64,000 bases of DNA from an uncultured Methylomirabilota bacterium (GTDB lineage: Bacteria > Methylomirabilota > Methylomirabilia > Methylomirabilales > 2-02-FULL-66-22). Shown one piece after another: positions 28,784-61,082 of the stretch (position 1 is the stretch's first letter; each line of letters begins with the position of its first letter). Made by a program: the position numbers and the translations under genes. The stretch is from NCBI GenBank assembly GCA_963705305.1, contig OY970067.1:384001-448000 (forward strand), in the 5' to 3' direction. The notes under the pieces are model-generated. The model saw only the letters and a program-made list of their open reading frames with translations. It had not been told where the DNA came from and did no database searches.

Positions 28784-28792
28784 GCAGCTCTC

Positions 28793-29806: not shown

Positions 29807-30151
29807 GACTCACTCCTCCCTTGAAGTGTCTCCGATCACGCCATCGAAACCGCCGGCCCTATCACGACTCTGTGGCGTCCCGCGCTGTCCAGAACACTCA
29901 CAGCATTCCCGTTGATAACCCCGGAAGGCCTCCGTGCTGCCCGTCCCGTGTGCCGGCAGCCTGCCAGTGCGTCCGCATACGGGAATCGGGCGGGAGAATC
30001 CCCTGCAGGCGGCGCGCATGCACTCCTGGTCCACCCGGATCGGGGGGCGAAACGAGACCGTATGGGCAGCGAAGAATACCGCAGCCACGGGGACGGGTGT
30101 CAAGTGAAAACCCCCCGCACGAAGGAGATTCGGCGAGCGCCGTCGATGGTT

Positions 30152-31192: not shown

Positions 31193-31263
31193 GCTTTGCC
31201 TCCAGCCCCGCCCGTGGATCCGTCGTCAGCACCATCCGGGTCCATTCGCAGGAATCCCGCTGT

Positions 31264-32061: not shown

Positions 32062-32132
32062 CGCGCGCCCTTTCACATTCCAGTGCCCCGCTCGCGCTAT
32101 CCCCGATTCACCGACGCGGCCGGCCGCACCGC

Positions 32133-33116
32133 CTACGCCTTCCCAAGGAGCCTCCGGACCTCGGCCACCACCCATTCCCTGCCGGGGATCACGAAATCTT
32201 CCATGGGCGGGCTGAAGGGATCCGGAACGTTCTTGGCCCCAATCCGCATGACGGGAGCGTCCAGGAAATCGAAAGCCTCTTCCTGGACGACCGCGGCAAC
32301 CTCGGCGCCCCAGCCCGCCCTCCGCCAGGTCTCGTGCACCGTGATCAACCGCCCGGTTTTCCGCACGGAGGCAAGAACCGCCTCTTTGTCCCACGGCACC
32401 AGCGTGCGCAGGTCCAGGACCTCGCACTCGATGCCGTCCTCGGCCGCCAGCGTGGCCGCCGCGTGGAGACTCTCGTGCACCATCCGGCTGGTTGCCACCA
32501 GCGTGACGTCGACACCGGCCCGCCTCACCTCCGCCCGGCCGAACGGCACGTACGCCTCCTCCTCGGGAACCATCCCCTTGAGCCCATAGAGCATCTTGTG
32601 CTCGAAGACGATGACAGGATCTTGGCCGGTGAGGGCCGTTTTCAGGAGGCCGTAGACGTTGGCGGGCGTCGAGGGAATTGCCACCTTGATCCCCGGGATG
32701 TGCATGAAAAGCGTCTCCACGCTCTGGGAATGGTGGGCCGCCGCCGCGCGCGCCCGCCCGTCCGGGCCCCGCAGGATGATGGGCAGCGCCCTCTGGCCCC
32801 CCGACATGTAGCGGATCTTCATGATCTGGTTGATGATGGCCCCCATGCCCGTGAAGAGGAAATCGGCGAAATGGAACTCCACCACCGGACGACAGCCCGC
32901 CAGGGCCGCGCCGACGGCCGATCCGTAGATCACCTCTTCCGAGATCGGCGTGTCGATGACCCGATCCTGAAAAGAGCCGAGCAGGTCCTTGTACTGTCCG
33001 AAGATCCCCCCTTGCTTGGCGATGTCCTCGCCGTACGTGAAGATGGTGGGGTCCCGCTCCATTTCTTCTTTGAGCGCCCGACAGATCGCATTGGCGTACG
33101 TCATCTCGATCGGCAT
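32133..33116 (-). CDS. ThDP-dependent 2-oxoacid/acetoin dehydrogenase E1 beta subunit
   Basis: YGEDI, RVIDTPISE, AAAHHSQS, FEHKMLY, DLRTLVPWD, FDFLDAPVMRI. Confidence 0.93.
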   Translation of the reverse strand: MPIEMTYANAICRALKEEMERDPTIFTYGEDIAKQGGIFGQYKDLLGSFQDRVIDTPISEEVIYGSAVGAALAGCRPVVEFHFADFLFTGMGAIINQIMKIRYMSGGQRALPIILRGPDGRARAAAAHHSQSVETLFMHIPGIKVAIPSTPANVYGLLKTALTGQDPVIVFEHKMLYGLKGMVPEEEAYVPFGRAEVRRAGVDVTLVATSRMVHESLHAAATLAAEDGIECEVLDLRTLVPWDKEAVLASVRKTGRLITVHETWRRAGWGAEVAAVVQEEAFDFLDAPVMRIGAKNVPDPFSPPMEDFVIPGREWVVAEVRRLLGKA

Positions 33117-33128
33117 GTCTGCACCGCC

Positions 33129-34112
33129 TTAGTAATCGTAGCCTGCGTCACTCACGAAGAGGTCGCCCAGGGCCTCGGAGGGACTGGGATAGGGGCTCTC
33201 CTCGGCAAATCGGGTCGCCTCGTCCGTTTCGACCTCGTAGCGCCGCCAGATCGCGCCCCGCTCCTCCTCGCTGAGCATCTGCTGATCGGCCAGGTGCCGC
33301 TCGAGCCGACCGATCGGCTCCTCCTGCCAGCGCGCCCGAACATCCTGCGGGTCCCGATACTTCTGCGGGTCCCCGACAAAGTGTCCCTTGAGGCGGTAGG
33401 TCTTGGCTTCGATCAGTGTCGGCCCGTCCCCTCGCCGCGCCTTCTCGATGGCCGCGCGCGCAGCCCGATGGACCTGCAGGACATCGTTGCCGTCCACGCA
33501 CAGGCCTTCCATGCTGTACGACTGCGCCCGCGCGGCAATGTCCTTCACGGAGGTGGACTCGACGGTGGGCATGGTCGAGGCATAGCAGTTGTGCTCGACC
33601 ACGAACACGACCGGCAGGCGGTAGATGGCGGCCCAGTTCAGCCCTTCGTGGAACGCCCCGCGATTCGACGCCCCGTCGCCAAAGAAACAGGCGACGACCT
33701 GATCGGTCTTCTTCACCAGCCGGATCGCCATTCCGGCGCCAACGGCAATGGGAATCCCTCCGGCAACCTCCCCATTTGCCCCCAGGACACCGAGGGAGAA
33801 GTCCATGATGTGCATGGACCCGCCCTTTCCCCTGCAGTAGCCCGTGGCTTTTCCGAACAGTTCCGCCATCATCCGCTTGCTGTCGGCCCCCTTGGCAAGC
33901 ATGTGCCCGTGGCCGCGATGCGTGCTGGTGATGTAGTCATCCGTCCGCAGTTGGGTGATCACCCCCGCGGCAATCGCCTCCTCGCCGACATAGAGATGGA
34001 TGAACCCCGGGATCTTCTTGTCCAGAAACAGCTGCTCGGCACGCTGCTCGAAGACGCGGATGCGAACCATGGTCTCGTAGAGACGCGTCAACTCCCTCCT
34101 CTCGATGGCCAT
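33129..34112 (-). CDS. ThDP-dependent 2-oxoacid/acetoin dehydrogenase E1 alpha subunit
   Basis: GFIHLYVGEEA, STHRGHGH, GKGGSMH, ThDP motif GDGA...HN, TYRLKGH. Confidence 0.93.
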   Translation of the reverse strand: MAIERRELTRLYETMVRIRVFEQRAEQLFLDKKIPGFIHLYVGEEAIAAGVITQLRTDDYITSTHRGHGHMLAKGADSKRMMAELFGKATGYCRGKGGSMHIMDFSLGVLGANGEVAGGIPIAVGAGMAIRLVKKTDQVVACFFGDGASNRGAFHEGLNWAAIYRLPVVFVVEHNCYASTMPTVESTSVKDIAARAQSYSMEGLCVDGNDVLQVHRAARAAIEKARRGDGPTLIEAKTYRLKGHFVGDPQKYRDPQDVRARWQEEPIGRLERHLADQQMLSEEERGAIWRRYEVETDEATRFAEESPYPSPSEALGDLFVSDAGYDY

Positions 34113-34744
34113 ACCGTTCCTCCCGTCAGGCTTTGCGGCAGGGCGAGCGCCGTGATCGAAAGCCTCTCTCTCGGGCCGGGCCGCCGCAGGCGGACCATCG
34201 TCAGGGATCTTCCTGAGTGGTCGGGGTGCCGGGCGGGAGCGGACGCGGGATGCGAGAGGCCTGCCCCGGAGCCGGGGCTCCGGACGCCCGTGCGCTGGGC
34301 CGCAGGGATCCCGCGACCGGTCAGGTCATCGGGATCCGGGTGCTGGAATCTGAGAGCATCGGGAAGCCGCGCGTGGCAGCGCGGTTCCCGCAGGAGGCGA
34401 GGGAAGTCACGAGCCGGGTCTGGCCGGATGCAAAGGCGGGGAGATGATCGAAGGGAAGCGGCACACGGCGGGAGCGCGGGGCGGTGCCCGCTCCGGCCTC
34501 CCGCCGACGGAAAGGCCGTCTGGCCGGGATAAAAAGGCGCTTCCGCATTTTCCCGCACGGCCAAGGCCTTTCCATTGAGAGGGGAACGGCCCCGTAGACG
34601 GCTGGATTGGATCACGGGCCCCCTCGCCGTGTCAAGCCATCCACCGGCGGCAAGCAGACTCCGGTGATATTTCCGGGCGTTTCGCTTCGACCAGGAGCGC
34701 CTCCATGGACACGGGGCCACCCCGCCGGAGATCTTCCGCATCCC

Positions 34745-35353
34745 TCACTCGTGGGGCAGCGGGCCGGGCAGATCGAAGCGCTGGCGAGTCGTGCAGTACC
34801 GGTCGCCGTATAGGCGCCCAATAGGACGGTAGGTCTCGCTCACGCGCCAGGTGGCGGGATCCACGAGCCCCTCTCGGACGTGCGCGTACAGGACCTCACC
34901 GAGGACCACCTCCCGGGCAGATCCGAACGTGAGGCGCCGGGTCAGCCGGCACTCCAGGCTGGCCGGAGCCTCCAGGATCCGCGGCGGCTTCACCATGACG
35001 CTGGGCGCCGGCGTGAATCCCGCCGCGACGAATTCACTCTCGGTCTCGGGCAGCTCTTGGGCGGTCAGCAGCATCGCGTTGGCCATACCTTCGTCCACCA
35101 GGTTCACCACGAAGGCCTTTGTCCGGCGGATGTTCCTCACCGTATCTTTCAACTGGCCGTCGCTCCGCCGATTGAAGCTGAGGACCACCATGGGGGGCTC
35201 GTCGGCCAGCACGTTGAAGAACGAGAATGGAGCGGCGTTGTACACTCCGCAGGCGCTCATGGTCGAGACCAGGGCGATGGGGCGTGGGTAGACCAAGCCG
35301 ATCAGCAGCTTGTACCGTGCTGGCCGCTCCAGGTCGCCAAACCGGAATTCCAT
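34745..35353 (-). CDS. Flavin reductase-like (DIM6/NTAB) FMN-binding protein
   Basis: PRPIALVST, NAAPFSFFN, KDTVRNI, SLECR, PIGRLYG..Y. Confidence 0.9.
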   Translation of the reverse strand: MEFRFGDLERPARYKLLIGLVYPRPIALVSTMSACGVYNAAPFSFFNVLADEPPMVVLSFNRRSDGQLKDTVRNIRRTKAFVVNLVDEGMANAMLLTAQELPETESEFVAAGFTPAPSVMVKPPRILEAPASLECRLTRRLTFGSAREVVLGEVLYAHVREGLVDPATWRVSETYRPIGRLYGDRYCTTRQRFDLPGPLPHE

Positions 35354-35467
35354 GGGGGATGCCTCAGCTGTCGCCGCCCCGCCCCGAGCGTCGGGCTCCG
35401 CCCGCGGAAGTCGCGGTGCTGTCCCGCGGGCTGGCCCCTACGCGCCCGTTCAGCGCGGGACCGTCAG

Positions 35468-36133
35468 TCACACCCCGAGCATCTCGGCCATGATGCGGGG
35501 AATCAGGGTCTGCGGGCAGAGCACGGGTTTGCCGGACAAGACCCGCATCCGGTGGGCCTCCTCGGGAGAGAAGCCCAGGCAGTCCAGGACGATCAGCTCC
35601 AGATCGGGCCGGCTGAGTTCCCTGGCCGCCCGCGGGAGATCGGAAGGGTTCGCTGGCGAGGCCACGGCCGCCTCGACTTCAAACCCCCTCCCCTGCCAGT
35701 GCGCCTTGGCGCACTCGGTCTGGCCGGCATTGGGGATCACGATCCCGATGCGGTTTCCGGAGCATACTCCCCTGACCATCGACGGGAGCAGCCGGCCGGG
35801 ATAGAGGACCGGAATGGGGCTCTGCAGCGCCGGGAAATCGCCCGCACACATGACCGCCGCCATGACCGCTCCCTCCCCGGCCACCTGCAACACCCGTTCG
35901 TCCAGGAGAGGCTTGAGGCGGTACAGCGAGATCTCCCTGGTCGTGCCGTCGCGCAGGATCGTGAACAGGGGGTACTCGCCGCCGGCCGCCGCCATGCGGT
36001 CGATCGTTTCCTCGGACAGGCCGTCCAGCGCCCCCCGCACGAGCAGCTGCACCTGCGGCAAGTGGCGCCGGAACACTCTCTCGAAATCCGGCCGGGGAGT
36101 CTGTCCGATAGTGAGGATTCCCACCGTATCCAC
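35468..36133 (-). CDS. aroM: AroM-family protein (Asp/Glu/hydantoin racemase-like fold)
   Basis: GILTIGQTPRPD, GALDGLS, TILRDG, MCAGDFP, IVLDCLGF; GAGGGG before GTG 36133. Confidence 0.82.
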   Translation of the reverse strand: MDTVGILTIGQTPRPDFERVFRRHLPQVQLLVRGALDGLSEETIDRMAAAGGEYPLFTILRDGTTREISLYRLKPLLDERVLQVAGEGAVMAAVMCAGDFPALQSPIPVLYPGRLLPSMVRGVCSGNRIGIVIPNAGQTECAKAHWQGRGFEVEAAVASPANPSDLPRAARELSRPDLELIVLDCLGFSPEEAHRMRVLSGKPVLCPQTLIPRIMAEMLGV

Positions 36134-36210
36134 GGGCCCCTCGCTTGGATGTCTTCGCCTCCGAAGCCGCACGCGGCTTCGGACCGGAGAGGATGAGGCG
36201 CGCGCCCGTC

Positions 36211-37440
36211 TCAGATCCGGCCAGCCAATCCCAGCAACGTCCCCAGCAGCACCTGGCAGCCCTGCGCGGCCTGGTCGGGCTCGATCCACTCGTCGGGACT
36301 GTGACTGACCCCTCGCCGACACGGGACGAAGATCATCCCCGTGGGGACCCCCGCCGCAGCGAAGCTCTGGGCATCGTGCCCGGCGCCGCTGGGCATGCGG
36401 ATGCACGAGAGCCCCTCTTGGGCAGCCGCATCGGCTACCGCTTGGATGAGATGCTCGGCACACGGGGTGCCGTCCTTCTCGAAGATTGTCTCCACCTTCC
36501 AGCCCCTCCGGGCCGCCGCGTGGGCTTTGAGCACCTCGCGGAGGTGGACCATGTCCTCCCGCTTCTGCGAGCGCACTTCAACCGTGAAGCGACAACGGCC
36601 GGGCACCACATTGGTGGCGCCGGGTTGAAGCTCCAACCGGCCGATGGTTCCCACCATGTCCGGATCGCGCGCCTTCACCCACTCGGGAAGCAGGGTAAAC
36701 AGCGGCGCGGCCTTCACCAGGGCGTCCTCCCGAAGGGCCATCGGCGTGGTGCCGGCGTGGGCCGGCTCGCCCTCGACACTCACCAGGTAGCGGTAGATTC
36801 CGACGATCGCCGTCACGGCGCCGATCTGGATACCTTGGCTCTCCAGCCGCGCTCCCTGTTCGATGTGGAGCTCCAGGTAGCAGGTGAATGCCCGGGGATC
36901 CCGGCGAGCCTCGCCGATCCGCTCCGGATTCCTGCCGGCCTTGCTGAGGTCATCAGCGAAGGACGGCCGGCCCTGCCCGATCCGCTGGAAGATCTCGCCG
37001 TCGGCAAGGCTGCCCATCATGGCCCGGCTGCCCACCGTGCCAGCATTGTGCGCGGCCTCCTCGTCGCAGAAATTGATGAGCTCCAGGTCCCAGGGAAGCT
37101 CGATGCCACGCTCTCGAATCGTCCGGATGCACTCCAAGCCCCCGAGGACCCCTAGAACGCCATCGAATTGCCCTCCTCCCGGCACCGAGTCCAGGTGAGA
37201 GCCCACGGCCACCAGGCCCGCGCCCGCTGTTCGGGATGGCAGGCGGCCGACTACGTTGTACGCGGCATCGACGGACGTCTCCAGGCCAGCCTCCCGCAGC
37301 CTGCCGATCAGCCACTCCTTGGCATGGAGATCCGCGTCGGACAGAGCCGTTCGGCTCGCCCCGCGGCCCGGCGTGAATCCCATCTTTCCCACCGCCATGA
37401 GATCGGCCCACAACCGGTCGGCGTTGATCTTAGGAGTCAT
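36211..37440 (-). CDS. M20-family Zn amidohydrolase (N-carbamoyl-amino-acid hydrolase / allantoate amidohydrolase type)
   Basis: GSHLDSVP.GG.FDG, DEE, ELHIEQG, AHAGTTPM, NVVPG, SGAGHDAQ, SHSPDE. Confidence 0.92.
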   Translation of the reverse strand: MTPKINADRLWADLMAVGKMGFTPGRGASRTALSDADLHAKEWLIGRLREAGLETSVDAAYNVVGRLPSRTAGAGLVAVGSHLDSVPGGGQFDGVLGVLGGLECIRTIRERGIELPWDLELINFCDEEAAHNAGTVGSRAMMGSLADGEIFQRIGQGRPSFADDLSKAGRNPERIGEARRDPRAFTCYLELHIEQGARLESQGIQIGAVTAIVGIYRYLVSVEGEPAHAGTTPMALREDALVKAAPLFTLLPEWVKARDPDMVGTIGRLELQPGATNVVPGRCRFTVEVRSQKREDMVHLREVLKAHAAARRGWKVETIFEKDGTPCAEHLIQAVADAAAQEGLSCIRMPSGAGHDAQSFAAAGVPTGMIFVPCRRGVSHSPDEWIEPDQAAQGCQVLLGTLLGLAGRI

Positions 37441-37597
37441 CGCTCCCCCGCTGCATGACAGCCCTCTGATGAGCACGGCGTCGGGCACCACCCGGCCGTC
37501 GCCGGGCGACGCCATCCGCCCCCGTCAGTACTGGATGACACGGGCGACCGCCCGGCTCTGCTATCGTACGCGCTTCCACGATCGGGGGCTGCCGACA

Positions 37598-38443
37598 TCA
37601 CGCCTGTCCTCGGGAATCGCTCGATCCGGTCTCACCGTCCTCGAAGGCGGCAACAGCCTCGGCCACGGTGAGGGCGGGGCGCGGTAGGCCCACCCCCAGA
37701 CTCCACCGGGTGATCATGGGCGGCGCCAGGGCGGTCCGCTGCAGGACCTCCACCTCTCGGAAGACCTCTCGGGGGGTGCCATCCAACAGCAGCTCGCCCC
37801 GGAACATCACCAGGGTGCGGCTGGCGCACTCCGCCAAGAGCTCCATGTCGTGGGTCACGAGGACGAGCGTGTGGCCGGCCGCATTCAACTGCCGTAGCGT
37901 CCCAACTAGCCGACTGACCTGCTGCCGGTCTTGGCCGCCCGTGGGCTCGTCCAGGATCAGGACGGGGGGGCGCATGGCGAGGAGGGAGGCGATGGCCAGG
38001 CGCTGGCGCTCGCCGCGGCTCAGCCGGAAGGGATGGCGGTCTTCCAGCCCCTGAAGGTCGAGGAGCTCTACGACATACCGACAGCTGGCCTCGATCTCGG
38101 CGGCCGGCATCCCGAGATTTCGGGGGCCGAATATGATCTCCTCGTGCACCGTGTTGCAGAAGATTTGATGATCCGGATTCTGAAAGACATAGCCCGCGTG
38201 GCGAGCCAATTCGGCCACCCCCTGGGTGCGGGTGTCCACTCCCAGCAGGCGGACCACCCCGCTGGTCGGCTTCAGCAAGCCGTTGAAATGTTTTACCAGG
38301 GTGGATTTGCCCGATCCGTTCTGGCCGACCACGCCGAGGAACTCCCCTGACCGGATGGTCACGGTGACCCCCTTGAGGGCCTCGACGCCGGACGGGTACG
38401 CGAAGCGGAGGTCGGCCGCCTCAATGGCGGGCGTGCTGTCCAT
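37598..38443 (-). CDS. ECF transporter ATPase (EcfA-type, second copy)
   Basis: GQNGSGKST, GYVFQNPDHQIF, HPFRLSRGERQR, LDEPTGGQD, VTHDM. Confidence 0.92.
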   Translation of the reverse strand: MDSTPAIEAADLRFAYPSGVEALKGVTVTIRSGEFLGVVGQNGSGKSTLVKHFNGLLKPTSGVVRLLGVDTRTQGVAELARHAGYVFQNPDHQIFCNTVHEEIIFGPRNLGMPAAEIEASCRYVVELLDLQGLEDRHPFRLSRGERQRLAIASLLAMRPPVLILDEPTGGQDRQQVSRLVGTLRQLNAAGHTLVLVTHDMELLAECASRTLVMFRGELLLDGTPREVFREVEVLQRTALAPPMITRWSLGVGLPRPALTVAEAVAAFEDGETGSSDSRGQA

Positions 38444-39266
38444 AGAGTGCACCAAGGCTTTGGATTCCTTCCTCGAGCGTGACAGGGACGGGGCCGGTGA
38501 GGTGGAGCCGCTGCTGGAGCGCCAGATACAGGTCGGTGACTTGCGGGAAACGGATCTTCGGGTCGTCCCGGATGGACGCATAAAACTCGCGGGGCGGCGC
38601 GAGGACCGCCGCCTTGCCCTCGCGCAGCAGGAGCATCCGATCGGCCAACGGGGCCACCCGGTCCGGATCGTTCTCCACGATCACAATGGTCGTCCCCCGC
38701 GCCTTCAGCTGCGCCAGGAGGCCGAACACTTCCTCGGTCCCCAGGGGGTCCAGCTCGCGCGTCGGCTCATCGAGGATCAAGATGGTGGGTTGCATGGCGA
38801 GGATCGCGGCCACCGATGCTCGCTGCTTCTGCCCGCCGGATAGCTCCTGGGACATGCGCCCCCCCAACCCCTGCAGGCCGACGAGCCCCAGCACCGTTTC
38901 CAGGCGAAAGACCATTTCCTCGCGGGGCACCCCCAGGTTCTCCATCCCGAAGACCACGTCGGCCTCCAGGGTCAGATTGAACAGCGCGTTCTCCGGATCC
39001 TGCAGGACCATTCCGACCTTCGTGGCCAGCTCGGCGAGACGCGCGGCGCGGGTGGACACGCCCTCCACGATGACCTCCCCTTCCATCCGGCCGGCGACGA
39101 GGTGCGGGATGGCCCCCACGAGGCAGAGACAGAGGGTGCTCTTGGCAGAGCCGAACACCGCCAGGCATTCTCCCCGCTCGAGGTCGAAACTGACCCCGCC
39201 GAGGGTCGGTTCAGAGGCCAAGGGATAATGAAAGACCAGATCGCGCACGCTGAGAATTGGCATCAT
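38421..39266 (-). CDS. ECF transporter ATPase (EcfA-type, first copy) with degenerate Walker A and H-loop
   Basis: VGMVLQDPENALF, FGMENLG, LSGGQKQR, LDEPTRELDP; Walker A reads FGSAKST and the H-loop reads VEND. Confidence 0.88.
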   Translation of the reverse strand: MMPILSVRDLVFHYPLASEPTLGGVSFDLERGECLAVFGSAKSTLCLCLVGAIPHLVAGRMEGEVIVEGVSTRAARLAELATKVGMVLQDPENALFNLTLEADVVFGMENLGVPREEMVFRLETVLGLVGLQGLGGRMSQELSGGQKQRASVAAILAMQPTILILDEPTRELDPLGTEEVFGLLAQLKARGTTIVIVENDPDRVAPLADRMLLLREGKAAVLAPPREFYASIRDDPKIRFPQVTDLYLALQQRLHLTGPVPVTLEEGIQSLGALYGQHARH

Positions 39267-39270
39267 GCCC

Positions 39271-40062
39271 TCAGAGCCACCCGCCGAGAACCGCGCCGAG
39301 GACGGCGGCGGCCGCCAGCACTGCCGCCGCCCGGAGACCGATATCCAGCGCCCCCCGTTGCACCTCCACGAAGAACGTCCGGTCCGGACGTGCGCCGAAG
39401 GCCCGCAAATCCAGCGCCAGCGCGATCGTGGACGCACGCCGGAGCGCGATCAGGACGAGCGGCACCATCAGGGGGAAGACGCGAAAGACGCGCAGCAGCG
39501 GGTTCACGCGCTCGATGTCGTAGCCGCGGCATTGCTGCGCGTTCTTGATCGTGGTCAGCTCTTCCAGCATGAGCGGCAGGAACCGCAGGGCCAAGGTAAA
39601 GCTGTAGGCATACTTGAACGGCATGCCGAGGTCGCATAAGGCCTTCGTGAACTTCGCCGGATGAACGACCACGAAAAAGATGGTCAGGGTGATCGCCAGC
39701 AGGACCACGCGCAGGGTGATGCGCAGCCCGAGCACGAACCCCTGCCCGGACAGGGTGATCTCCCGGCCCAGGATGTGCCAGCTCGCGACGATCTGCTCGG
39801 GCTGCGTCACCGTCTGAATGAGCGTGATGAAGAAACACAGGGGCAAGATGAGTATGAGCGGCGCCAGGACCGTCCGGGCAGGCAGCCGCCCTACGACCAT
39901 GAACAGGAGCAGCGCCGCGAGGGTGGCGCCCATGACCCCCAGATGGAGGGTCGAGAAAACGATCACCGTGGCGCACACCACCAGAGTCGCCATCGTCATC
40001 GGGTGCAGCCGGGTCGTCCAGGAGCGCCCCTCGAGGGCAAACGTGTAAAGCGATCGGGCCAT
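39271..40062 (-). CDS. ecfT: ECF transporter transmembrane T component
   Basis: RLHPMT, LALRFLPLM, coupling-helix motifs AQQCRG and ALDLRAF. Confidence 0.9.
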   Translation of the reverse strand: MARSLYTFALEGRSWTTRLHPMTMATLVVCATVIVFSTLHLGVMGATLAALLLFMVVGRLPARTVLAPLILILPLCFFITLIQTVTQPEQIVASWHILGREITLSGQGFVLGLRITLRVVLLAITLTIFFVVVHPAKFTKALCDLGMPFKYAYSFTLALRFLPLMLEELTTIKNAQQCRGYDIERVNPLLRVFRVFPLMVPLVLIALRRASTIALALDLRAFGARPDRTFFVEVQRGALDIGLRAAAVLAAAAVLGAVLGGWL

Positions 40063-40078
40063 AATACGATGGGGCCTC

Positions 40079-40666
40079 CTACTCCTCCACGAAGCCCGCG
40101 TTCCGGACCACGTTGAGAAGTCCCCGCAGGAAGATGGCCGGAACGGGGATGCAGACCGCGGTTTGAAACGCATACAGATTCAGCATCTTATGCCACGGCA
40201 ATTTGAAGTAGAACACGTGGAGCGGGATGTAGAGCACCACCAGCAGGAGGGCGGCCGTAATCGAATAGACGATCACGTAGGGCCAGGAGATGATGTTCCG
40301 GAAATACCGCCCCACCAGCCAGGCACTGAAGGCCTGGGAGGCATTGGTGATCAGCCAGAAGGGGGCGATCGGGCTCGTGCCGGTGGCGGTGGCGATCAGG
40401 GGGTTGATGTCCGCCACGATGATCCCGGGCACCAGGCCGTACAGCATGGTCCCCAGCCCGATCATCGTCATCGAAATGATGCGGCCGGACACCGGGAACA
40501 ATCCCCCGAAGAGGAGCGTATCTAGCCGTTCTGCAAACTGCAGGAGGCCGATCATGGCCAGCGCCAGGAAGATGGCGCTTACGATTCCCTTGGAATCCAC
40601 CCGCCCCGGGCAAGCCTTCGCGGACATCTTGGCCAACGGAATGGTGAACTGCTTCGTCGTTGCCAT
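40079..40666 (-). CDS. Probable ECF substrate-binding S component of unrecognised family
   Basis: About 195 aa, about 6 hydrophobic helices, AxxxA (AIFLA) in helix 1, immediately upstream of ecfT and the two ATPases; AGGAGGAGG RBS. Confidence 0.7.
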   Translation of the reverse strand: MATTKQFTIPLAKMSAKACPGRVDSKGIVSAIFLALAMIGLLQFAERLDTLLFGGLFPVSGRIISMTMIGLGTMLYGLVPGIIVADINPLIATATGTSPIAPFWLITNASQAFSAWLVGRYFRNIISWPYVIVYSITAALLLVVLYIPLHVFYFKLPWHKMLNLYAFQTAVCIPVPAIFLRGLLNVVRNAGFVEE

Positions 40667-40778
40667 CGTGCCCTCCTCCTTGAGGGATGCATTGCCTGCC
40701 GCACATGACGCACCGCCCCTCACCGGCAGCCGCTGCGCGGCCCCTTGACGGCCCCGGCGCGTGCCGCCGGGCCGCAGA

Positions 40779-42137
40779 TCAGGCAGTCCCCGGCGCGGCC
40801 CCTGGCACAAACCGGCCGTCTCCCGGTTTCGCCAGGAGCTCCCCGTCCCGGTACGCGAACACCCCACGGACCAGCGTCGCCACCACCGCCCCCTGCACCG
40901 TCATCCCTGCAAACGGACTCCACCGGGCATGCGAAAACATCTGATCGTCGCGGACCACCCAGCGCTTCTTGGGGTCGAACAGCACGAGGTCCGCATCGGC
41001 GCCCGGGCGGAGCTCGCCTTTCGTCGGCGGCAGATCGAAGACCCGCGCAACATTCCGGCTCAGAACCTCTACGAAGCGGCCCAGGCTGATCCGCCCTTTG
41101 GCCACCCCTTCGCTGTACAGCAGCGGGACGAGCGTCTGGACGCCGGGGGCGCCGGAGCCGTTCTCGAAGATGTCCGGCTTGCTCTTGCTTTCTGGGGGCC
41201 AGGGGGCATGGTCCGAGGCCACGAGGTCGATCCGGCCGGCCGCCAGGTCCGCCCACAACCCCTCCACGTCCGCGCGCTCCCGCACCGGCGGGTTGATCTT
41301 TGCCTTGGCCTTCAGGCGATCCATGTCGTCGATCGTCAGCACGAGGTAATGCGGGCACGTCTCCGCGGTGACCCGGGCTCCCTCCCGCCGATAGCGCTGG
41401 ACCAACTCGATGCAACGGGGGAGCGAGACATGATGGATGTGCAAGCGGACGCCCGTCTCCAGGGCAAACTCGCAGGCCCGGAGGGTAGCCTCCACCTCGG
41501 AGATCGGAGGCCGGCTCAGGCAGTGGTCGCGAGGCGCCGTGCGGCCGGCAGCGCGCAGCTGCCGGACGGTCTCCTGGACGATGCGATCGTTCTCCGCGTG
41601 AACCCCCGCGTGCAACCCTGTCCGGGCCACCCGCCGGAAGGCCTCCAGCAGAAAGGGGTCCGGCACGATGGGGAAGCGCACCGGGTCCGTATCGAAGAGG
41701 GACATCTTGTATCCGCAGGCGCCGGCTGCCGCCAGGCCGGCGACCTGGTCCAGGGTCTCCTTCTTGACAGCCGCCAGCATGGCGCAATCCACGCGGGTCT
41801 CTTTTCGGATCCGATCCAGCTTTGCCATGAACTGGTCCGTGGTCGATATCCCGGCCGGGGCATCGAACGGCATGTCCACGATGGTGGTCACGCCGCCCGC
41901 CGCCGCCGCCGCGGTTGCGGCGGGTACTCCCTCGAAGGGCGTGCTGGCGCAGTGGACGTGGGCATCGATGAAGCCGGGGAAGACCAGCAGGCCGGCGGCG
42001 TCTACCCGCTCTCGGGCGGGCGGTTCATATCCCGGCGCGAACCATCCGGCGATTCGCCCATCGCGCACCCCGATCCCCGCCCCGGAGGCGATTCGCCCAT
42101 CCCACACCACATCTCCCACGATCAGCATGTCCAGCAT
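40779..42137 (-). CDS. Allantoinase/hydantoinase/dihydroorotase-family cyclic amidohydrolase
   Basis: PGFIDAHVH, GGVTTIVDMP, GYKMS (carbamylated Lys position), HAEN, ETCPHYL, KINPPVR, ASDHAPW. Confidence 0.9.
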   Translation of the reverse strand: MLDMLIVGDVVWDGRIASGAGIGVRDGRIAGWFAPGYEPPARERVDAAGLLVFPGFIDAHVHCASTPFEGVPAATAAAAAGGVTTIVDMPFDAPAGISTTDQFMAKLDRIRKETRVDCAMLAAVKKETLDQVAGLAAAGACGYKMSLFDTDPVRFPIVPDPFLLEAFRRVARTGLHAGVHAENDRIVQETVRQLRAAGRTAPRDHCLSRPPISEVEATLRACEFALETGVRLHIHHVSLPRCIELVQRYRREGARVTAETCPHYLVLTIDDMDRLKAKAKINPPVRERADVEGLWADLAAGRIDLVASDHAPWPPESKSKPDIFENGSGAPGVQTLVPLLYSEGVAKGRISLGRFVEVLSRNVARVFDLPPTKGELRPGADADLVLFDPKKRWVVRDDQMFSHARWSPFAGMTVQGAVVATLVRGVFAYRDGELLAKPGDGRFVPGAAPGTA

Positions 42138-42189
42138 GGCTCTCTCCGTTCCCTCTCCTTGCAAGTCGAGGAGACGACCGGCCGTCCCG

Positions 42190-43092
42190 TCACCTGGGGC
42201 CCTGACCAACCGGAATCCCCTCATGCCACGTGAAAATGTCGAAATGGCGGAAGAGCTGCTCCTGAACCGCGTAGCGCTCCCTCACGGAATCGGCGGCCAA
42301 CCTGACATACTCTGCCAAGACCGCGTTTACGAGAGAAGTGGCGGCCGTGTACGAGTCGAACGACGAGGCCCCCCGGGTAGAGATGATGAATCTGAGGTCC
42401 GCCAACGGAGCCTGGGGGGCCATGGCCGAGTCGGTGAAAAGAATCACCTGACCGTCCACCTTCCGAAAGTACTCTGCCACCCTCCCGCTGAGCCGTGGGT
42501 AACGGCGGAAATCAAAGAGCCACAGGATGTCCCCCGACCGTGCCCGACTCAGGAGATCGGCAACATAGAAGTTCCCCATCGGGGCCAGGAAGACGTTCTC
42601 CCGCACCCCGTTGAGCTGGATGAAGGTGTAGAGGCAGAGCGAGAAGTGCTTCCGGGCGCCGAACACGAACACGGACCGTTCTCGATCCAGCAGAAGCCTC
42701 ATGAACTTGCGAACATCGGCGAGCGACAGGTCCTTGAAGGTCTCTTGGATGTTCTTGAGATCGAGATGCAGAACCTGCTGGAACAGCGCGGTCTCGTCCT
42801 TGACCGGCCTGATCCGCGCCGGCGTGCGCGCCAGGGGGGAGGCCATGAGGAAATTCACCGCCTCCCGAACATCCTCATGGGCACCCTTGATGCTGCCGTA
42901 CCCGATCTTGGGGAAAAAGCGCGAGACGGTGGAGACATTCAGATTGAGCGCCTTGGCAATCGACGAGGCATTCTCGAGGAGTCCGGTGGGATACGAGCGC
43001 AGCAGGTAATCGGCGATCTTCCGGTCGCTGGGCGAGAGGGAGCCGCGGGCCCGGTGGATGCGCTCAGTGAAGGCGAGCTTGGGATTCTTCAT
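42190..43092 (-). CDS. RpiR/MurR-family transcriptional regulator (HTH + SIS)
   Basis: LSPSDRKIADYL, STVSRFFPKIGY, VFVFGARKHF, FDFRRY, FTDSAMAP. Confidence 0.9.
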   Translation of the reverse strand: MKNPKLAFTERIHRARGSLSPSDRKIADYLLRSYPTGLLENASSIAKALNLNVSTVSRFFPKIGYGSIKGAHEDVREAVNFLMASPLARTPARIRPVKDETALFQQVLHLDLKNIQETFKDLSLADVRKFMRLLLDRERSVFVFGARKHFSLCLYTFIQLNGVRENVFLAPMGNFYVADLLSRARSGDILWLFDFRRYPRLSGRVAEYFRKVDGQVILFTDSAMAPQAPLADLRFIISTRGASSFDSYTAATSLVNAVLAEYVRLAADSVRERYAVQEQLFRHFDIFTWHEGIPVGQGPR

Positions 43093-43136
43093 GCAAACCT
43101 TTTTGCATTAGTCCGCTTGTGTGCAAAGAGTTTGCA
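43091..43136. promoter_or_regulatory. Two TGCAAA...TTTGCA palindromes at and upstream of the RpiR start
   Basis: ATGCAAACCTTTTTGCAT (43091-43108) and TGCAAAGAGTTTGCA (43122-43136); extra half-site TGCAAA near 43179. Confidence 0.6.
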
Positions 43137-43581
43137 GCGGTTTCGGCCGGCCTGTCAACGGGGGGGTGCAGGCGATCGTGCAAAGGTATGGCTTTTCGAA
43201 CAGCGCGATAGCACCCGCCGGGTCAGCCGGGGTGATTCGACGCCGCCCGAAACCCTGGTCATTTCGAAATTGAAAGGGCCATCTCGGTGCCTTGGCGGCG
43301 AGAGCTTCGGATTGGGTCAGTGATCGCGAAAGGCCGGGATGTCGATCGGATTGAGAAGGGTGTGGGTCGCGGAGCCGAAGGGGAATCCCTCCAAGGAAGA
43401 CTCGCCGCAGGCCTTCCCTGACAAGCAGGTCGGCCTGTGACTGACCCGTGCTGACGAGGATCGAGCTGGACGCTCGGGATGTGGGGCAGGAGGCGGCGCC
43501 CGCTTGCTTACCGATCCCCCGACGCCGTCCGATCGTCCCGGCAGGCCCCTCGTGGCGGGCCACGATCGTCTTCCTGTCGGA

Positions 43582-44988
43582 TCAGAAGGGCCCCGTGGCG
43601 GTCCCGGCTCTTGGCGTTCCGCGCTGGCGCGACAGCCCCGCGGAGCCCACGCCCCTGCCTTTCGTCGCCCGCAAATACGAGACCAGGTTCATCGGCTGCC
43701 GGGTGAGCCCGAACTTCGCGCGGATGTTCTTCCGGTGAAACGCAATGGCGCTTGGCGACACTCCAAGCATCGCGGCGATCTCCTTGGTCCGCTTGCCCAG
43801 CCGCAATAGGTCCGCGATCTGCAATTCGGTCGGGGTCAGCCGCATCCTCCAGGATTCCACCTGCTCGCCAAAGGACGAGGTGACGTTGCGGAGGTTGGCC
43901 TCCATGACCTCTACCAACACCCGCTGATCGGTGCTGAGGGGAGTCGTTTTGAGGTTCGCCACGTACGCCAAAACCAGCTCTTCCAGGGTGGTGCGCACGC
44001 CCGCCAGCCGCAGCTGCGCCTCATGCTCCCGGTGTTCCATCAGGGTCGTCAAGGCGGCATTCAGTTTTTCGATCTTCTGCAGCTGAAGCGAGATCTCTCG
44101 ATCCTTCTGCAGGAGGGCCTCCTCGGCCTGCACGCGGGCGGTCACGTCGCGATTGACACAGAGCACGCATGGCTTCCCATCGTAGCGCATCGGCGTGATG
44201 GCGGTTTCCACGATCAGCCGGGACCGATCGGGGAGGACCATCGTCTGGCGCCTGGGCGGATCCGGGAGGCCGGTTTCGAGCGCCGTGCGCGTCCGCGTGA
44301 GGAGCACCTCGTGATCGTCGGCATGGAAGAGGCCGAGCACCGAGCGGCCGTCGAGATCCTCCGGGCGCAGGGCGCCGACGAGGCGGGTGGCCGCCGGATT
44401 TGCGAAGACGACCCGGCCGCCGGTGTCCGACACGATCACGGCATCGGGGAGGAACTCGATGAGGCTGCGATAGCGCTCCTCCGCCTCGCGCAGCTCCTGC
44501 TCCGCCAGTTTCGCCGTGGTGTTGTCGAAGAGATAGCCGCGGATCTGCGTGAGGTCCCCGTGCGAGTCCCGCACGCCCACCACGTTCTCGACCACGTGGA
44601 TGCAGACGCCGTCGCGTCGCTGCCGCACGCATTCGTAGTGCTCGAGCTTCCCCCCCGTGCGGAGCGCGGCAAGGAAGCTGTCGTAGTCTTTGGGGCGGGG
44701 ATGCAGCGCCCGCAGGTTCGTCCGAAGCGCGTCCTGCCGGCTCGCAAATCCGAGGATCGCGACGAAGGCGGGGTTGCAGTCTAGAATCTTCCCCTCCCGG
44801 GTGGCAAGGTAATCGCCGGTGAGGTCGTCTTCAAAGAGTCGCCGATACCGCTCTTCACTTTCCCGAAGCGCCTGCTCTGCGCGCGCCGACTTGCTCAGCC
44901 GGCGTCCGCACGCCTCCGCTTGGGCCAGTTTCTTTTGGAGCGCGGCGATTTCCCCCAGCAGGCTTTCACGCGAGGCTGACTGTCTCAC
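43582..44988 (-). CDS. PAS-PAS-coiled-coil-LuxR-HTH one-component regulator (paralog 1)
   Basis: GGAG before GTG 44988; ESEERYRRLFE, two PAS domains, LTPTELQIADLLRLGKRTKEIA...FHRKNIRAKFGL. Confidence 0.88.
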   Translation of the reverse strand: MRQSASRESLLGEIAALQKKLAQAEACGRRLSKSARAEQALRESEERYRRLFEDDLTGDYLATREGKILDCNPAFVAILGFASRQDALRTNLRALHPRPKDYDSFLAALRTGGKLEHYECVRQRRDGVCIHVVENVVGVRDSHGDLTQIRGYLFDNTTAKLAEQELREAEERYRSLIEFLPDAVIVSDTGGRVVFANPAATRLVGALRPEDLDGRSVLGLFHADDHEVLLTRTRTALETGLPDPPRRQTMVLPDRSRLIVETAITPMRYDGKPCVLCVNRDVTARVQAEEALLQKDREISLQLQKIEKLNAALTTLMEHREHEAQLRLAGVRTTLEELVLAYVANLKTTPLSTDQRVLVEVMEANLRNVTSSFGEQVESWRMRLTPTELQIADLLRLGKRTKEIAAMLGVSPSAIAFHRKNIRAKFGLTRQPMNLVSYLRATKGRGVGSAGLSRQRGTPRAGTATGPF

Positions 44989-60205: not shown

Positions 60206-60292
60206 GGATGCTCCTCCTCCACGGCGCGGCAGGTGCTCGGGAGCGGCCGCGCCTGATCCGACCTCCTATCCTGCTCCCCTTGAAATGGAAAG

Positions 60293-60316
60293 TCTCGACC
60301 CTGCCGCCGGTCGAGA
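60293..60316 (-). terminator. Hairpin downstream of livF, possible intrinsic terminator
   Basis: TCTCGACC/GGTCGAGA 8-bp stem, followed on the minus strand by CTTTCCATTTC. Confidence 0.45.
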
Positions 60317-61064: not shown

Positions 61065-61082
61065 CTCTCCTTGTGGCTTATT

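Follow-up and report, generated by a model that had tools for sequence, protein, structure and literature searches.

We consider it moderately probable that the operon described here serves the scavenging of an external 5-substituted hydantoin bearing a carboxylate, most likely hydantoin-5-propionate, which arises as an intermediate late in the degradation of ergothioneine and histidine, or a close analogue. In the pathway that we infer, including its catalytic activities, the identity of its substrate and the direction of its regulation, a dedicated ECF importer (a new S component, EcfT and an asymmetric EcfA1/EcfA2 pair) would take up the compound. AroM, putatively a member of the Asp/Glu/hydantoin racemase superfamily that works with two cysteines and without a cofactor, would interconvert the D and L forms of the ring. 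An ErtD-like cyclic amidohydrolase would open the ring to an N-carbamoyl-L-amino acid (N-carbamoyl-L-glutamate), from which an ErtE-like M20 hydrolase would release the L-amino acid (glutamate), NH3 and CO2, and the signal for the RpiR/SIS regulator is probably the substrate or an intermediate. Scavenging is proposed because the host genome possesses only HutH and HutU of the histidine route and lacks a thiohydantoin desulfurase; ergothionase and thiourocanate hydratase were likewise not found in this genome.

The window, i.e. the whole stretch of 64,000 nucleotides that was analyzed, carries the nine genes between positions 34745 and 43092, entirely on the minus strand. With gene starts refined by ribosome-binding sites and HMM alignment starts, they are as follows:

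42190-43092, minus strand: RpiR/MurR-family regulator (HTH_6 and SIS), the first gene; Pfam SIS 51.1 bits, HTH_6 28.0 bits (cut-off 28.3)
40779-42137, minus strand: cyclic amidohydrolase, ErtD-like (hydantoinase/allantoinase/dihydropyrimidinase superfamily); Amidohydro_1 74 bits
40079-40666, minus strand: S component of the ECF transporter, 195 aa, without Pfam or NCBIfam match; fold predicted from a model
39271-40062, minus strand: EcfT (CbiQ-type) transmembrane coupling component; PF02361 CbiQ 88.2 bits
38421-39266, minus strand: EcfA1 ATPase; best NCBIfam model TIGR04520 ECF_ATPase_1, 181.8 bits, below the cut-off of 315
37598-38443, minus strand: EcfA2 ATPase; best NCBIfam model TIGR04521 ECF_ATPase_2, 247.2 bits, below the cut-off of 330
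36211-37440, minus strand: M20 hydrolase of the N-carbamoyl-L-amino-acid amidohydrolase type, ErtE-like; TIGR01879 348 bits, above the cut-off of 204
35468-36133, minus strand: AroM-family protein; PF07302 177 bits
34745-35353, minus strand: Flavin_Reduct-domain FMN reductase (Flr); PF01613 90 bits

From the regulator to Flr, the spacers measure 52, 112, 16, 4, -23 (an overlap), 157, 77 and 114 bp, and the next co-oriented gene beyond the set, encoding an E1 alpha subunit, follows after a gap of 632 bp. The first-pass annotation had described nine co-oriented genes at 34745..43136. All nine were indeed found on the minus strand and the start of this span is correct, but its end lies 44 bp past the RpiR start codon.

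Judged by gene order, the nine genes are a real operon and their grouping exceeds chance, because a metagenome contig (L060) keeps the same order, Amido-S-T-A1-A2-M20-AroM-Flr, at protein identities of 65-93%, and sub-sets of the genes recur at many further loci. All gene counts in this study are tblastn or HMM matches and crude ORF calls rather than curated annotation.

Going by their family scores, the two hydrolases are probably nearest to ErtD and ErtE and not an anonymous hydantoinase and carbamoylase, and their chemistry is probably a described one. ErtD and ErtE catalyze the steps from hydantoin-5-propionate via N-carbamoyl-L-glutamate to L-glutamate in ergothioneine breakdown. The best NCBIfam model for the amidohydrolase of the window is hydantoin-5-propionate amidohydrolase (ErtD, NF058539; 466.8 bits, cut-off 650), and the scores for allantoinase (TIGR03178; 334 bits, cut-off 357.85) and D-hydantoinase (TIGR02033; 303 bits, cut-off 393) are below the cut-offs as well. 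The metal-ligand motifs are present, the motifs found being DAHVH (58), GYKM (142), VHAEN (179), HIHHVS (233) and SDHAP (308). For the M20 hydrolase the top model is ErtE (NF058540; 406 bits, cut-off 520). Since both hydrolases score below the ErtD and ErtE cut-offs, their substrate may differ. Among PDB entries, the amidohydrolase is most similar to the L-hydantoinase 1gkr (263 bits), followed by allantoinases (232-242 bits), and the M20 hydrolase to the N-carbamoyl-L-amino acid hydrolase 3n5f (268 bits).

The amidohydrolase phylogeny proposed in the first-pass annotation was realized as a quick version only. In this tree, the enzyme of the window joins the amidohydrolases of locus L074 and of the TRAP-type loci (16 rows, SH-aLRT 99), and ErtD is also the best model for the TRAP-type enzymes (485-510 bits). 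In L074, the ErtD-like enzyme and AroM adjoin a thiohydantoin desulfurase (583 bits, cut-off 440) and ErtE (536 bits, cut-off 520), both above cut-off. It is because of the ErtD and ErtE models, the context in L074 and the common amidohydrolase clade that hydantoin-5-propionate is proposed specifically. The window thus shares with the lower ergothioneine-catabolism pathway (NF058538/NF058539/NF058540) the best curated models for its hydrolases and, for the amidohydrolase, the clade of an enzyme encoded beside a desulfurase and ErtE. However, its hydrolases remain below the equivalog cut-offs, the genome is devoid of the upstream Ert steps, and the window additionally encodes its own importer along with AroM, an RpiR regulator and an FMN reductase.

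An AroM-centred comparison of 80 metagenome loci, many of them on short contigs, revealed that the M20-AroM-flavin reductase trio recurs widely and adjoins an ErtD-like amidohydrolase. M20 homologs with 72-86% identity lie directly ahead of AroM in 16 of the 80 loci. An ErtD-like amidohydrolase precedes the window-type M20-AroM-Flr arrangement in nine of the ten loci having at least 3 kb upstream, and Flr follows AroM in ten of the twelve window-type loci having at least 2.6 kb of downstream sequence. The homologs near the ErtD-like amidohydrolase are 64% (RpiR), 72-86% (M20), 62-79% (AroM) and 73-89% (Flr) identical to the proteins of the window. TRAP transporter genes (DctPQM or TAXI), which stand in the place of the ECF module, were detected in only six of the 80 loci (L040, L049, L052, L054, L055 and L074). 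TRAP systems carry organic acids and anions, and by analogy their presence in homologous clusters suggests that the imported substrate is probably acidic. The SIS-domain regulator heading the TRAP-type cluster of L049 is 64% identical to RpiR of the window and one in L074 39%; there is no RpiR match in the other ECF loci, the regulator being seen only in the window, L049 and L074. Flr is NbaA-like (best PDB match: 2-nitrobenzoate nitroreductase 4z85, 141 bits) and, as indicated by its co-conservation with AroM, belongs to the M20-AroM module; it has no place in the proposed chemistry.

The loci with the S component were compared in a sample of 17 from about five phyla (14 genome loci, two same-genus genomes and L060, with the window included and several contigs cut). 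EcfT partners with 45-93% identity follow S in all 17 loci, a cyclic amidohydrolase lies beside the S-T-A-A' module in 12 of them and an M20 hydrolase of the carbamoylase type in 11. The amidohydrolases linked to the S family belong to three clades. In Chloroflexota, the S family (55-64% identity) pairs with D-hydantoinase-type enzymes (TIGR02033; 409-422 bits, above cut-off in three loci). In Bacillota and Acidobacteriota (again 55-64% identity for S), it pairs with allantoinase-type enzymes that score just above the TIGR03178 cut-off (359-364 bits), and the M20 hydrolases of these clusters pass the subfamily model 'allantoate amidohydrolase' (NF006771; 410-442 bits, cut-off 399). Either one substrate is common to these amidohydrolases of differing ancestry, or the transport range of the S family extends to several related rings.

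The latter would fit an explanation that we regard as possible but clearly less probable than hydantoin-5-propionate, namely that the same architecture handles another ring: 5-carboxymethylhydantoin (yielding aspartate), another amino-acid-derived hydantoin or a six-membered ring resembling dihydropyrimidine or dihydroorotate. In that case, hydantoin-5-propionate would be only one of a class of rings handled by the S family and AroM. The three amidohydrolase clades, the ErtD and ErtE scores below cut-off and the broad-range nature of the best PDB matches, L-hydantoinase 1gkr and L-carbamoylase 3n5f, are consistent with this. The same applies to L008, whose cluster also holds an aspartate-dehydrogenase-like gene, an aminotransferase and a 2-hydroxyacid dehydrogenase, and to L100, where AroM is paired with a dihydropyrimidinase-type enzyme (NF009941; 748 bits, cut-off 647). 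However, ErtD is still the top model for the amidohydrolase, 118 bits over allantoinase and 164 over D-hydantoinase, as is ErtE for the M20 hydrolase, and in L074 an amidohydrolase of the same clade and AroM occur with a desulfurase and an ErtE above cut-off. A dihydropyrimidine in particular is disfavored by the weaker match of the M20 hydrolase to N-carbamoyl-beta-alanine amidohydrolase (8c46, 205 bits) than to the L-carbamoylase (268 bits) and by the absence of a dihydropyrimidine dehydrogenase gene from the cluster.

The assumption of the first-pass annotation that AroM fills the racemase slot of a hydantoinase pathway gained support. A hydantoin racemase (PF01177) is present at six of the 17 S-family loci, AroM at six and both at none; in three of the other five loci the contig breaks off directly at S. 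Two of the loci with a racemase (L034 and L035) come from the same genus as the window and have the order Amido-racemase-S-T-A-A'-M20. Their racemase gene occupies the interval between amidohydrolase and S that in the window, which carries AroM, is just the 112-bp spacer. None of the 80 AroM-centred loci yielded a racemase match. The AF2 model of AroM (pLDDT 95.4) shows the Asp/Glu/hydantoin racemase fold, with hydantoin racemase 2eq5 as the best structural match (Foldseek E 6.4e-7; Z 17.5, rmsd 3.0 over 191 of 221 residues). The residues C96 and C185 are invariant in 27 of 27 aligned AroM sequences, and hhalign aligns them, though weakly, with the cysteine pair that is invariant among the ECF-linked racemases (36% probability, E 3.8e-4, two 5-row alignments). 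Based on the alternation and the modeled fold, we propose AroM as a two-cysteine racemase of the imported hydantoin. AroM has the fold of the superfamily (2eq5; allantoin racemase 3qvj/5lg5; maleate isomerase; arylmalonate decarboxylase) but constitutes a separate Pfam family (PF07302); the AroM of the window has no PF01177 match, and no AroM structure or activity was found, the search of PDB sequences with a profile yielding 0.084 as the lowest E. The reaction does not follow from the fold alone, since superfamily members within about 1-2 Z of the best match include decarboxylases and isomerases. The genome also holds four other PF01177 matches, two of them full-length and without an amidohydrolase, M20 or ECF-racemase match within about 9 kb, and a racemase may act from elsewhere in the genome.

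A racemase, a cyclic amidohydrolase and an M20 hydrolase also form the allantoin route, in which AroM would racemize imported allantoin in place of HpxA/AllR, an allantoinase would open it and an AllC-type M20 hydrolase would cleave allantoate. We regard this as improbable, although allantoinases are the second-best PDB matches, the Bacillota and Acidobacteriota versions pass the allantoinase and allantoate amidohydrolase models, and allantoin racemases are structural neighbors of AroM (Z 15.7-16.1). The amidohydrolase of the window fails TIGR03178 and its M20 hydrolase fails both AllC (TIGR03176; 203 bits, cut-off 598) and NF006771 (397.5 bits, cut-off 399), matching AllC 1z2l with 169 bits compared to 268 bits for the L-carbamoylase. 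No enzyme for ureidoglycine or ureidoglycolate was seen among the cluster genes. Moreover, the TRAP genes of homologous clusters speak for an anion as the substrate, while allantoin is neutral.

The transporter is of the ECF type, as CbiQ, ECF_ATPase_1 and ECF_ATPase_2 are the best models for its components and the remaining one has the S-component fold. According to its AF2 model (pLDDT 77), the membrane protein at 40079-40666 is the substrate-capture (S) component and represents a new, rare family. Among 48,161 PDB chains, the 15 best matches to the model are all ECF S components, followed by a drop to Z 7.9. The best is FolT (4huq_S; Z 15.7, rmsd 2.8 over 160 residues), further matches being RibU (Z 14.3) and BioY (Z 13.5), whereas NikM and CbiM match more weakly than FolT and RibU (Z 12.7 and 10.3). 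The family yielded 50 matches at E<=1e-3 among 1.84 billion representatives, all 70 close clusters are hypothetical, and Pfam, NCBIfam and wider sequence searches detected no relation to named S families. In all eight aligned A1 sequences, EcfA1 has a Walker A shortened by a 3-residue P-loop deletion and, with END instead of THD, an Asn replacing the H-loop His, while EcfA2 has a canonical Walker A and the signature LSRGE (alignment A5). One ATP site of the pair thus looks degenerate from the alignment. As in group I (dedicated) ECF transporters (BioMNY, CbiMNQO, folate and riboflavin complexes), the genes for S, T and two A components lie together and S has the six-helix fold. The window differs from these in the sequence isolation of its S component, in the unusual ATPase motifs and in the embedding of the module in a catabolic operon.

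The first-pass annotation had the ECF module import the ring compound or a needed cofactor. The former is favored by the homologous RpiR, M20, AroM and Flr genes beside ErtD-like amidohydrolases and by the six loci with TRAP genes in place of ECF, and the latter is very unlikely. Characterized ECF systems are known as importers of micronutrients (vitamins, cofactors and Ni/Co), both hydrolases are metal enzymes, Flr binds FMN, and in the nearest clusters of the Atlas 29-41% of the members carry PF07155, a riboflavin-type S family. However, an S component unrelated in sequence to named families, structural matches to NikM/CbiM below those to FolT/RibU, the absence of a CbiN/NikN-like gene with the ECF genes of the window, the organic-anion carriers as the transporter genes detected in homologous clusters and the association of S with hydantoinase-type genes in 12 of the 17 loci, in different phyla and with or without Flr, argue against a supply of cofactor or metal. 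That two unrelated modules (Amido plus ECF; M20-AroM-Flr) are merely adjacent is just as unlikely, for although the M20 hydrolase of the same-genus Amido-racemase-ECF-M20' loci is only about 40% identical to that of the window, indicating differing histories, S occurs in only one of the 80 AroM loci and 157 bp separate EcfA2 from M20, each half elsewhere carries the contribution of the other (racemase and M20, or ErtD-like amidohydrolase and transporter), L060 keeps the joined order and all nine genes are co-oriented.

Classical Hyu clusters comprise a hydantoin racemase (HyuE/HyuA), a hydantoinase, an L-carbamoylase (HyuC) and an NCS1 permease (HyuP/Mhp1). The window resembles them in combining a ring-opening cyclic amidohydrolase, an M20 enzyme of the L-carbamoylase type, a proposed racemase function and a transporter. 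It differs in having AroM instead of a PF01177 racemase and an ECF importer with a new S family instead of the NCS1 permease, and its likely substrate would be a natural carboxyalkyl hydantoin and not one of the industrial aryl or alkyl hydantoins. The first-pass annotation did not recognize the combination as a described pathway. This holds for ECF, AroM and flavin reductase, which we did not find together in the literature searched, but not for the chemistry of the hydrolases, which is probably described. If hydantoin uptake by this operon proves true, the passage of a catabolic substrate through an ECF importer would be an atypical use of such a transporter.

The cluster comprises nine genes on the minus strand between positions 34745 and 43092. 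The first-pass annotation had described nine co-oriented genes here, and all of them are present according to the ORF listing and the Pfam and NCBIfam scans, with gene starts adjusted to ribosome-binding sites and to where the HMM alignments begin:

42190-43092, minus strand: RpiR regulator (ORF with Pfam/NCBIfam scans; start refined by ribosome-binding site and HMM alignment start)
40779-42137, minus strand: cyclic amidohydrolase (same basis, refined start)
40079-40666, minus strand: S, an unnamed membrane protein of 195 aa (ORF listing; without Pfam or NCBIfam match)
39271-40062, minus strand: EcfT/CbiQ (PF02361, 88.2 bits, cut-off 25)
38421-39266, minus strand: EcfA1 (ABC_tran and NCBIfam)
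37598-38443, minus strand: EcfA2 (ABC_tran and NCBIfam)
36211-37440, minus strand: M20 hydrolase (TIGR01879, 348.4 bits, cut-off 204)
35468-36133, minus strand: AroM with GTG start (PF07302, 177.3 bits)
34745-35353, minus strand: Flavin_Reduct protein, Flr (ORF with Pfam/NCBIfam scans)

The spacers within the cluster range from -23 to 157 bp and the GC content around it lies at 0.63-0.69; at the far end of the window (60001-64000) it drops to 0.54 compared to about 0.65 in the remaining window. A gap of 632 bp separates the cluster from the next co-oriented genes (26897-34112), which encode a TPP-dependent E1 alpha and beta pair, an SDR, a Zn-dependent alcohol dehydrogenase and the TRAP proteins DctP and a fused DctQM, and which we treated as a unit of their own. 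The upstream flank of the cluster holds a PAS-LuxR regulator gene as well as an Mrp antiporter operon. A scan of 34000-43700 gave no promoter-like site (0.8 expected) and nine terminator-like sites (4.3 +/- 2.4 expected), none of them at an informative gene end. No NCS1-type hydantoin permease was found among the nine genes or the scanned flanking genes; an ECF module is present instead.

The module has the components of a dedicated-type ECF transporter. In it, EcfT is accompanied by two EcfA-type ATPases (ABC_tran 67 and 108 bits), whose best NCBIfam models, ECF_ATPase_1 (181.8 bits, cut-off 315) and ECF_ATPase_2 (247.2 bits, cut-off 330), both stay below the equivalog cut-off. In EcfA1 the Walker A loop is shorter by three residues and the H-loop His is replaced by Asn, as seen in all eight family members aligned (window, L002, L003, L004, L008, L009, L011 and L013; L-numbers denote the compared genome or metagenome contigs). 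EcfA2 has a canonical Walker A motif and H-loop, and LSRGE or LSRGQ replaces the signature LSGGQ in three of three sequences aligned. From these changes we predict that, of the two ATP sites of the ATPase pair, one is degenerate and the other follows the consensus.

The S protein, when scanned, matched no Pfam or NCBIfam model. A word-indexed search detected 70 clusters of relatives with 53-93% identity, nearly all of them called 'hypothetical protein' or nameless, and two of these clusters carry a precomputed PF12822 match. A sub-threshold PF12822 signal (about 22 bits, cut-off 30.7) was also obtained for 3 of the 26 distant relatives scanned with Pfam. The family is rare: among 1.84 billion representatives, no more than 50 proteins were obtained with HMMER at E <= 1e-3, of which 25 reach E <= 1e-10 and four E <= 1e-30. 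The AF2 model (pLDDT 77.3) was compared with 48,161 PDB representatives by VIA, and the best 15 matches are all ECF S components (Z 10.1-15.7), followed by a 16th match at Z 7.9. The folate component FolT (4huq_S) ranks first (Z 15.7, rmsd 2.8 over 160 residues) and is followed by RibU, BioY, ThiT, NikM, PanT, CbiM and BtuM. Foldseek gave only weak E-values (>= 0.013), but its top matches are S components nevertheless, and the clusters nearest to S in a language-model Atlas are S-component-like hypothetical proteins (score 0.92). Judging from the modelled structure, this rare family of membrane proteins consists of ECF S components.

The occurrence of this S family beyond the window was analyzed with one genome per species, which resulted in 14 loci. 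They belong to Methylomirabilales (L002), an unclassified MAG (L001), Chloroflexota/Anaerolineae (L004-L007 and L012-L014), a MAG labelled Sphingomonadaceae (L003), Bacillota/Negativicutes (L008, L010 and L009 from Sporomusa aerivorans DSM 13326) and Acidobacteriota (L011). Together with L034 from the same genus, the metagenome contig L060 and the window itself this makes 17 distinct loci, L035 being the same contig as L002. Gene content was determined by tblastn with the window proteins plus Pfam and NCBIfam scans of the neighbours. The gene set proved to be conserved: S, EcfT, EcfA1 and EcfA2 occur together in every locus long enough to contain all four, an amidohydrolase is present in 12 and an M20 hydrolase in 11 of the 17 loci, and several contigs end inside or right by the cluster. 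Within the phylum of the window, S matches were obtained in 8 of 251 genomes. Four of these are close, namely the genome of the window and three of the 20 other genomes of the same genus, and four are distant (E about 1e-21), including G216, which enters only these phylum counts. In the same-genus genome G019 the amidohydrolase match (L034, 11568-12503; 88% identity) is limited to 308 of 452 residues, and this gene may be truncated or frameshifted.

A distant S-like protein family (S', 27-28% identity, E about 1e-21) was found in genomes of another taxonomic family of the same class, at L036 (7761-12576), L037 (8407-14527) and L038 (163-6298). In these loci a D-hydantoinase-type amidohydrolase (TIGR02033 470 bits, cut-off 393, for L037) is followed by S', two ATPase genes and the T gene, and in L037 and L038 additionally by a DAO-type FAD oxidoreductase. 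M20, racemase and AroM were not detected in any of the three.

With regard to the chemistry of the pathway, both hydrolases have enzymes of ergothioneine breakdown as their best NCBIfam models. The amidohydrolase (Amidohydro_1, 74 bits) possesses motifs at residues 58, 142, 179, 233 and 308, which we take to be the ligands of a binuclear metal center. Its best models are those of ErtD, type 2 (NF058539, 466.8 bits, cut-off 650) and type 1 (NF058538, 441.2 bits, cut-off 600), both matched below cut-off, compared to 348.6 bits for the allantoinase model NF004839, 334.1 bits for the allantoinase AllB model TIGR03178 (cut-off 357.85) and 302.9 bits for D-hydantoinase; none of these scores reaches its equivalog cut-off. 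Likewise, the best match of the M20 hydrolase is ErtE (NF058540, 406.3 bits, below the cut-off of 520). It scores above the cut-off for N-carbamoyl-L-amino-acid amidohydrolases and far below that for AllC (TIGR03176, 203.1 bits vs 597.75). The nearest solved structures are an L-hydantoinase (1gkr, 263 bits) and an L-carbamoylase (3n5f, 268 bits), compared to 169 bits for AllC (1z2l). In ergothioneine breakdown, ErtD and ErtE convert hydantoin-5-propionate via N-carbamoyl-L-glutamate to L-glutamate, downstream of ergothionase, thiourocanate hydratase and thiohydantoin desulfurase, and the names of the NCBIfam models returned are consistent with this order. The cluster would accordingly open a hydantoin ring to an N-carbamoyl amino acid and release the amino acid, most likely by the ErtD and ErtE steps.

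A search with PF01175, PF00221 and NF058529 revealed none of the three upstream Ert steps in the window genome. The only aromatic lyase was identified as HutH (TIGR01225, 658 bits, cut-off 539) and the only urocanase as HutU (962 bits, cut-off 375; 709 bits with the thiourocanate hydratase model, cut-off 930); the two are encoded far from the window with unrelated genes between them. The desulfurase model NF058529 had no match in this 98.9%-complete genome. From these gene contents we read the cluster as a putative scavenging system for hydantoin-5-propionate, or a closely similar compound, that other organisms or abiotic reactions produce.

A related arrangement is found in the 20.7-kb metagenome locus L074, where the cluster extends over 4433-16958 and an ErtD-like amidohydrolase, RpiR and AroM stand back to back with a thiohydantoin desulfurase (583 bits, cut-off 440), ErtE (536 bits, cut-off 520) and a second, TAXI-type TRAP system, so that the locus holds two TRAP systems. 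Ergothionase and thiourocanate hydratase are absent from its scanned genes, and the cluster seems to serve the scavenging of both thiohydantoin- and hydantoin-propionate. In a quick tree the amidohydrolases of the window, L060 and L002 are sister to those of L074 and the TRAP-type clusters (16 rows, SH-aLRT 99), and the ECF-linked enzymes that resemble allantoinase or D-hydantoinase fall into two separate clades; five partial matches (L034, L086, L094, L096 and L110) and the duplicate L035 were omitted. Since S proteins that are 55-64% identical are coupled to three amidohydrolase clades, the S family may carry a small class of related rings. In L008, a Bacillota MAG, genes for a D-2-hydroxyacid dehydrogenase, a class I/II aminotransferase (639 bits with NF004854, cut-off 464) and a protein resembling aspartate dehydrogenase lie between the ECF genes and AroM (4861-7860) and may handle the amino-acid product.

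The loci of AroM relatives bear on the role of the transporter. The AroM clade comprises 199 clusters at E <= 1e-10, and from 427 metagenome relatives 80 loci were kept, 40 of them on contigs shorter than 6 kb. These 80 loci contain an amidohydrolase in 27 cases, Flr in 19, M20 in 16, TRAP genes in six and an ECF S gene in one (L060). Twenty-eight loci are of the window type, with an AroM at least 60% identical to that of the window. Where at least 2.6 kb of downstream sequence is available, Flr follows AroM in 10 of 12 of them, and where at least 3 kb is available upstream, AroM is preceded by a cyclic amidohydrolase in 9 of 10 and by M20 in 7 of 10. Among the longest examples, the locus L049 has the order RpiR (64% identical), DctP, DctQ, DctM, amidohydrolase, M20, AroM, a further amidohydrolase and Flr; the order in L054 is the same, but no RpiR was detected. 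The amidohydrolases of the TRAP-type clusters also score best on ErtD (485-510 bits). Compared with these orders, the window looks like an M20-AroM-Flr module in which the TRAP genes and their amidohydrolase were swapped for an amidohydrolase and an ECF transporter. TRAP genes take the place of the ECF genes in a few homologous clusters, and this argues that the ECF transporter imports the substrate of the pathway; the earlier proposal had named the ring compound or a needed cofactor as its cargo. TRAP systems carry organic acids, which suggests that the imported substrate is an organic acid as well.

The further amidohydrolase between AroM and Flr is TRZ/ATZ-like, about 530 aa long, present in 7 of the 80 loci (for instance L044 1594-3186, L049 9353-11299 and L054 6598-8232) and absent from the window. 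The NCBIfam matches of the L044 protein are restricted to models of the TRZ/ATZ and deaminase types, none of them above cut-off, and the proteins of L049 and L054 have an imidazolonepropionase-like composite domain. AroM also occurs in a different context, as two or three tandem paralogues on marine metagenome contigs (L075-L085, L105, L106 and L113) in which no cyclic amidohydrolase was detected. In L078 and L085 the paralogues have genes for two TPP-dependent enzymes, a cytidine-deaminase-like protein and a 2-hydroxyacid dehydrogenase as neighbours, in L085 also genes for an HpcH aldolase and an Ldh_2 dehydrogenase. The locus L100 combines AroM with genes for a glyoxalase-like protein, a DapA-like protein and a dihydropyrimidinase.

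Flr is tightly linked to AroM and has no step in the proposed route. Its nearest relatives are the 2-nitrobenzoate nitroreductase 4z85 (141 bits) and component B of NTA monooxygenase. Among other versions of the cluster, L011 encodes a nitroreductase-ferredoxin protein and L013, L036, L086 and L102 encode luciferase-like monooxygenases, so that some variant of the ring may undergo a redox step.

AroM alternates with Asp/Glu/hydantoin racemases of the PF01177 family. The window operon contains no such racemase, and four matches are located elsewhere in the genome. L003, L005, L006 and L013 carry a PF01177 racemase gene (181-192 bits) immediately upstream of S, and in L002/L035 and L034 it stands between amidohydrolase and S. 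AroM, for its part, immediately precedes S in L009, L010 and L011; in L008 its position is farther down the cluster, and in the window and L060 it comes behind M20. Among the 17 loci, six have the racemase, six have AroM, none has both and five have neither. Three of the latter (L001, L004 and L014) are cut less than 360 bp from S, and in the Anaerolineae loci L007 (441-1955) and L012 (179-1774) a GlcD-like FAD-linked oxidase is present directly upstream of S, in the racemase/AroM position. The two sides represent roughly three independent lineages each and not twelve independent events. The 80 AroM-centred metagenome loci gave no racemase match either. The contrast is sharpest within one genus, where G015 and G019 have the order amidohydrolase (87-88% identical to that of the window), racemase, S, T, A1, A2 and M20', the last being only about 40% identical to the M20 hydrolase of the window. 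In the window and L060 the order is amidohydrolase, a spacer of 112 or 116 bp, S, T, A1, A2, M20, AroM and Flr. This spacer is conserved between the two, and no racemase remnant was evident in it when it was aligned together with the racemase flanks of L002. By comparative evidence, AroM occupies the functional slot of the hydantoin racemase, as had been assumed in the first pass.

The structure predicted for AroM is compatible with such a role. The protein is the only AroM in the genome and covers the full length of PF07302 (profile positions 1-219 of 219). The AF2 model, built from 27 sequences (pLDDT 95.4), has the hydantoin racemase 2eq5 as top match in Foldseek (E 6.4e-7) and aligns with it in VIA at Z 17.5 (rmsd 3.0 over 191 residues). 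The remaining superfamily, comprising malonate/arylmalonate decarboxylases, maleate isomerase, allantoin racemases and Asp/Glu racemases, follows at Z 14-16.6. Since neighbours with differing reactions score so closely, the fold sets the superfamily of AroM and not its reaction. The model shows the two-domain Rossmann-like fold of the racemase superfamily, and the sequence contains a candidate for its catalytic cysteine pair. C96 and C185 are invariant in 27 of 27 AroM sequences. In hhalign comparisons of small alignments they fall on the two invariant cysteines of the ECF-linked racemases (motifs IAC..DPG and LGCAG), but at a low probability of 36% (E 3.8e-4). Precomputed PF01177 and PF07302 matches occur together on 6 of the 120 listed clusters of AroM homologues. 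A PDB profile search with the AroM alignment found no solved AroM structure, the best match being 2eq5 at a non-significant E of 0.084. The source names for PF07302 proteins are only 'protein AroM' or 'AroM family protein'.

Overall, the interpretation of the first-pass annotation is supported, with the chemistry refined to the ErtD and ErtE steps as the likeliest ones. This chemistry is probably a known one, from hydantoin ring to amino acid. What appears to be undescribed is that a new ECF S family delivers the compound and that AroM stands in for a hydantoin racemase. Among the records that our literature search returned, no relevant paper joins ECF transporters with hydantoin or hydantoinase, or AroM with a racemase, and the co-mentions are unrelated. 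The abstracts on ECF transporters deal with the uptake of vitamins, cofactors and micronutrients. As a joint proposal, which we put forward tentatively and consider somewhat more likely to fail in one of its parts than to hold in all, AroM, an orphan family with no activity assigned, would be a two-cysteine racemase of carboxyalkyl hydantoins such as hydantoin-5-propionate, the new S family would be the first ECF importer for a catabolic substrate and not for a vitamin or metal, the ATPase pair would have one degenerate ATP site, and the carriers would cross-feed on rings leaked by ergothioneine or histidine degraders.

The idea is directly testable, since Sporomusa aerivorans DSM 13326 is a cultured carrier, and the enzymes of the cluster may be of interest for users of industrial hydantoinase processes. 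If the proposal is true, AroM (PF07302) would receive a testable biochemical function and a naturally asymmetric ECF ATPase pair would be added for study. Moreover, the substrate range and the physiological role of ECF transporters would reach beyond micronutrients, and compounds of the hydantoin-5-propionate type would be turned over in the environment by organisms that do not possess the upstream ergothioneine/thiohydantoin steps.
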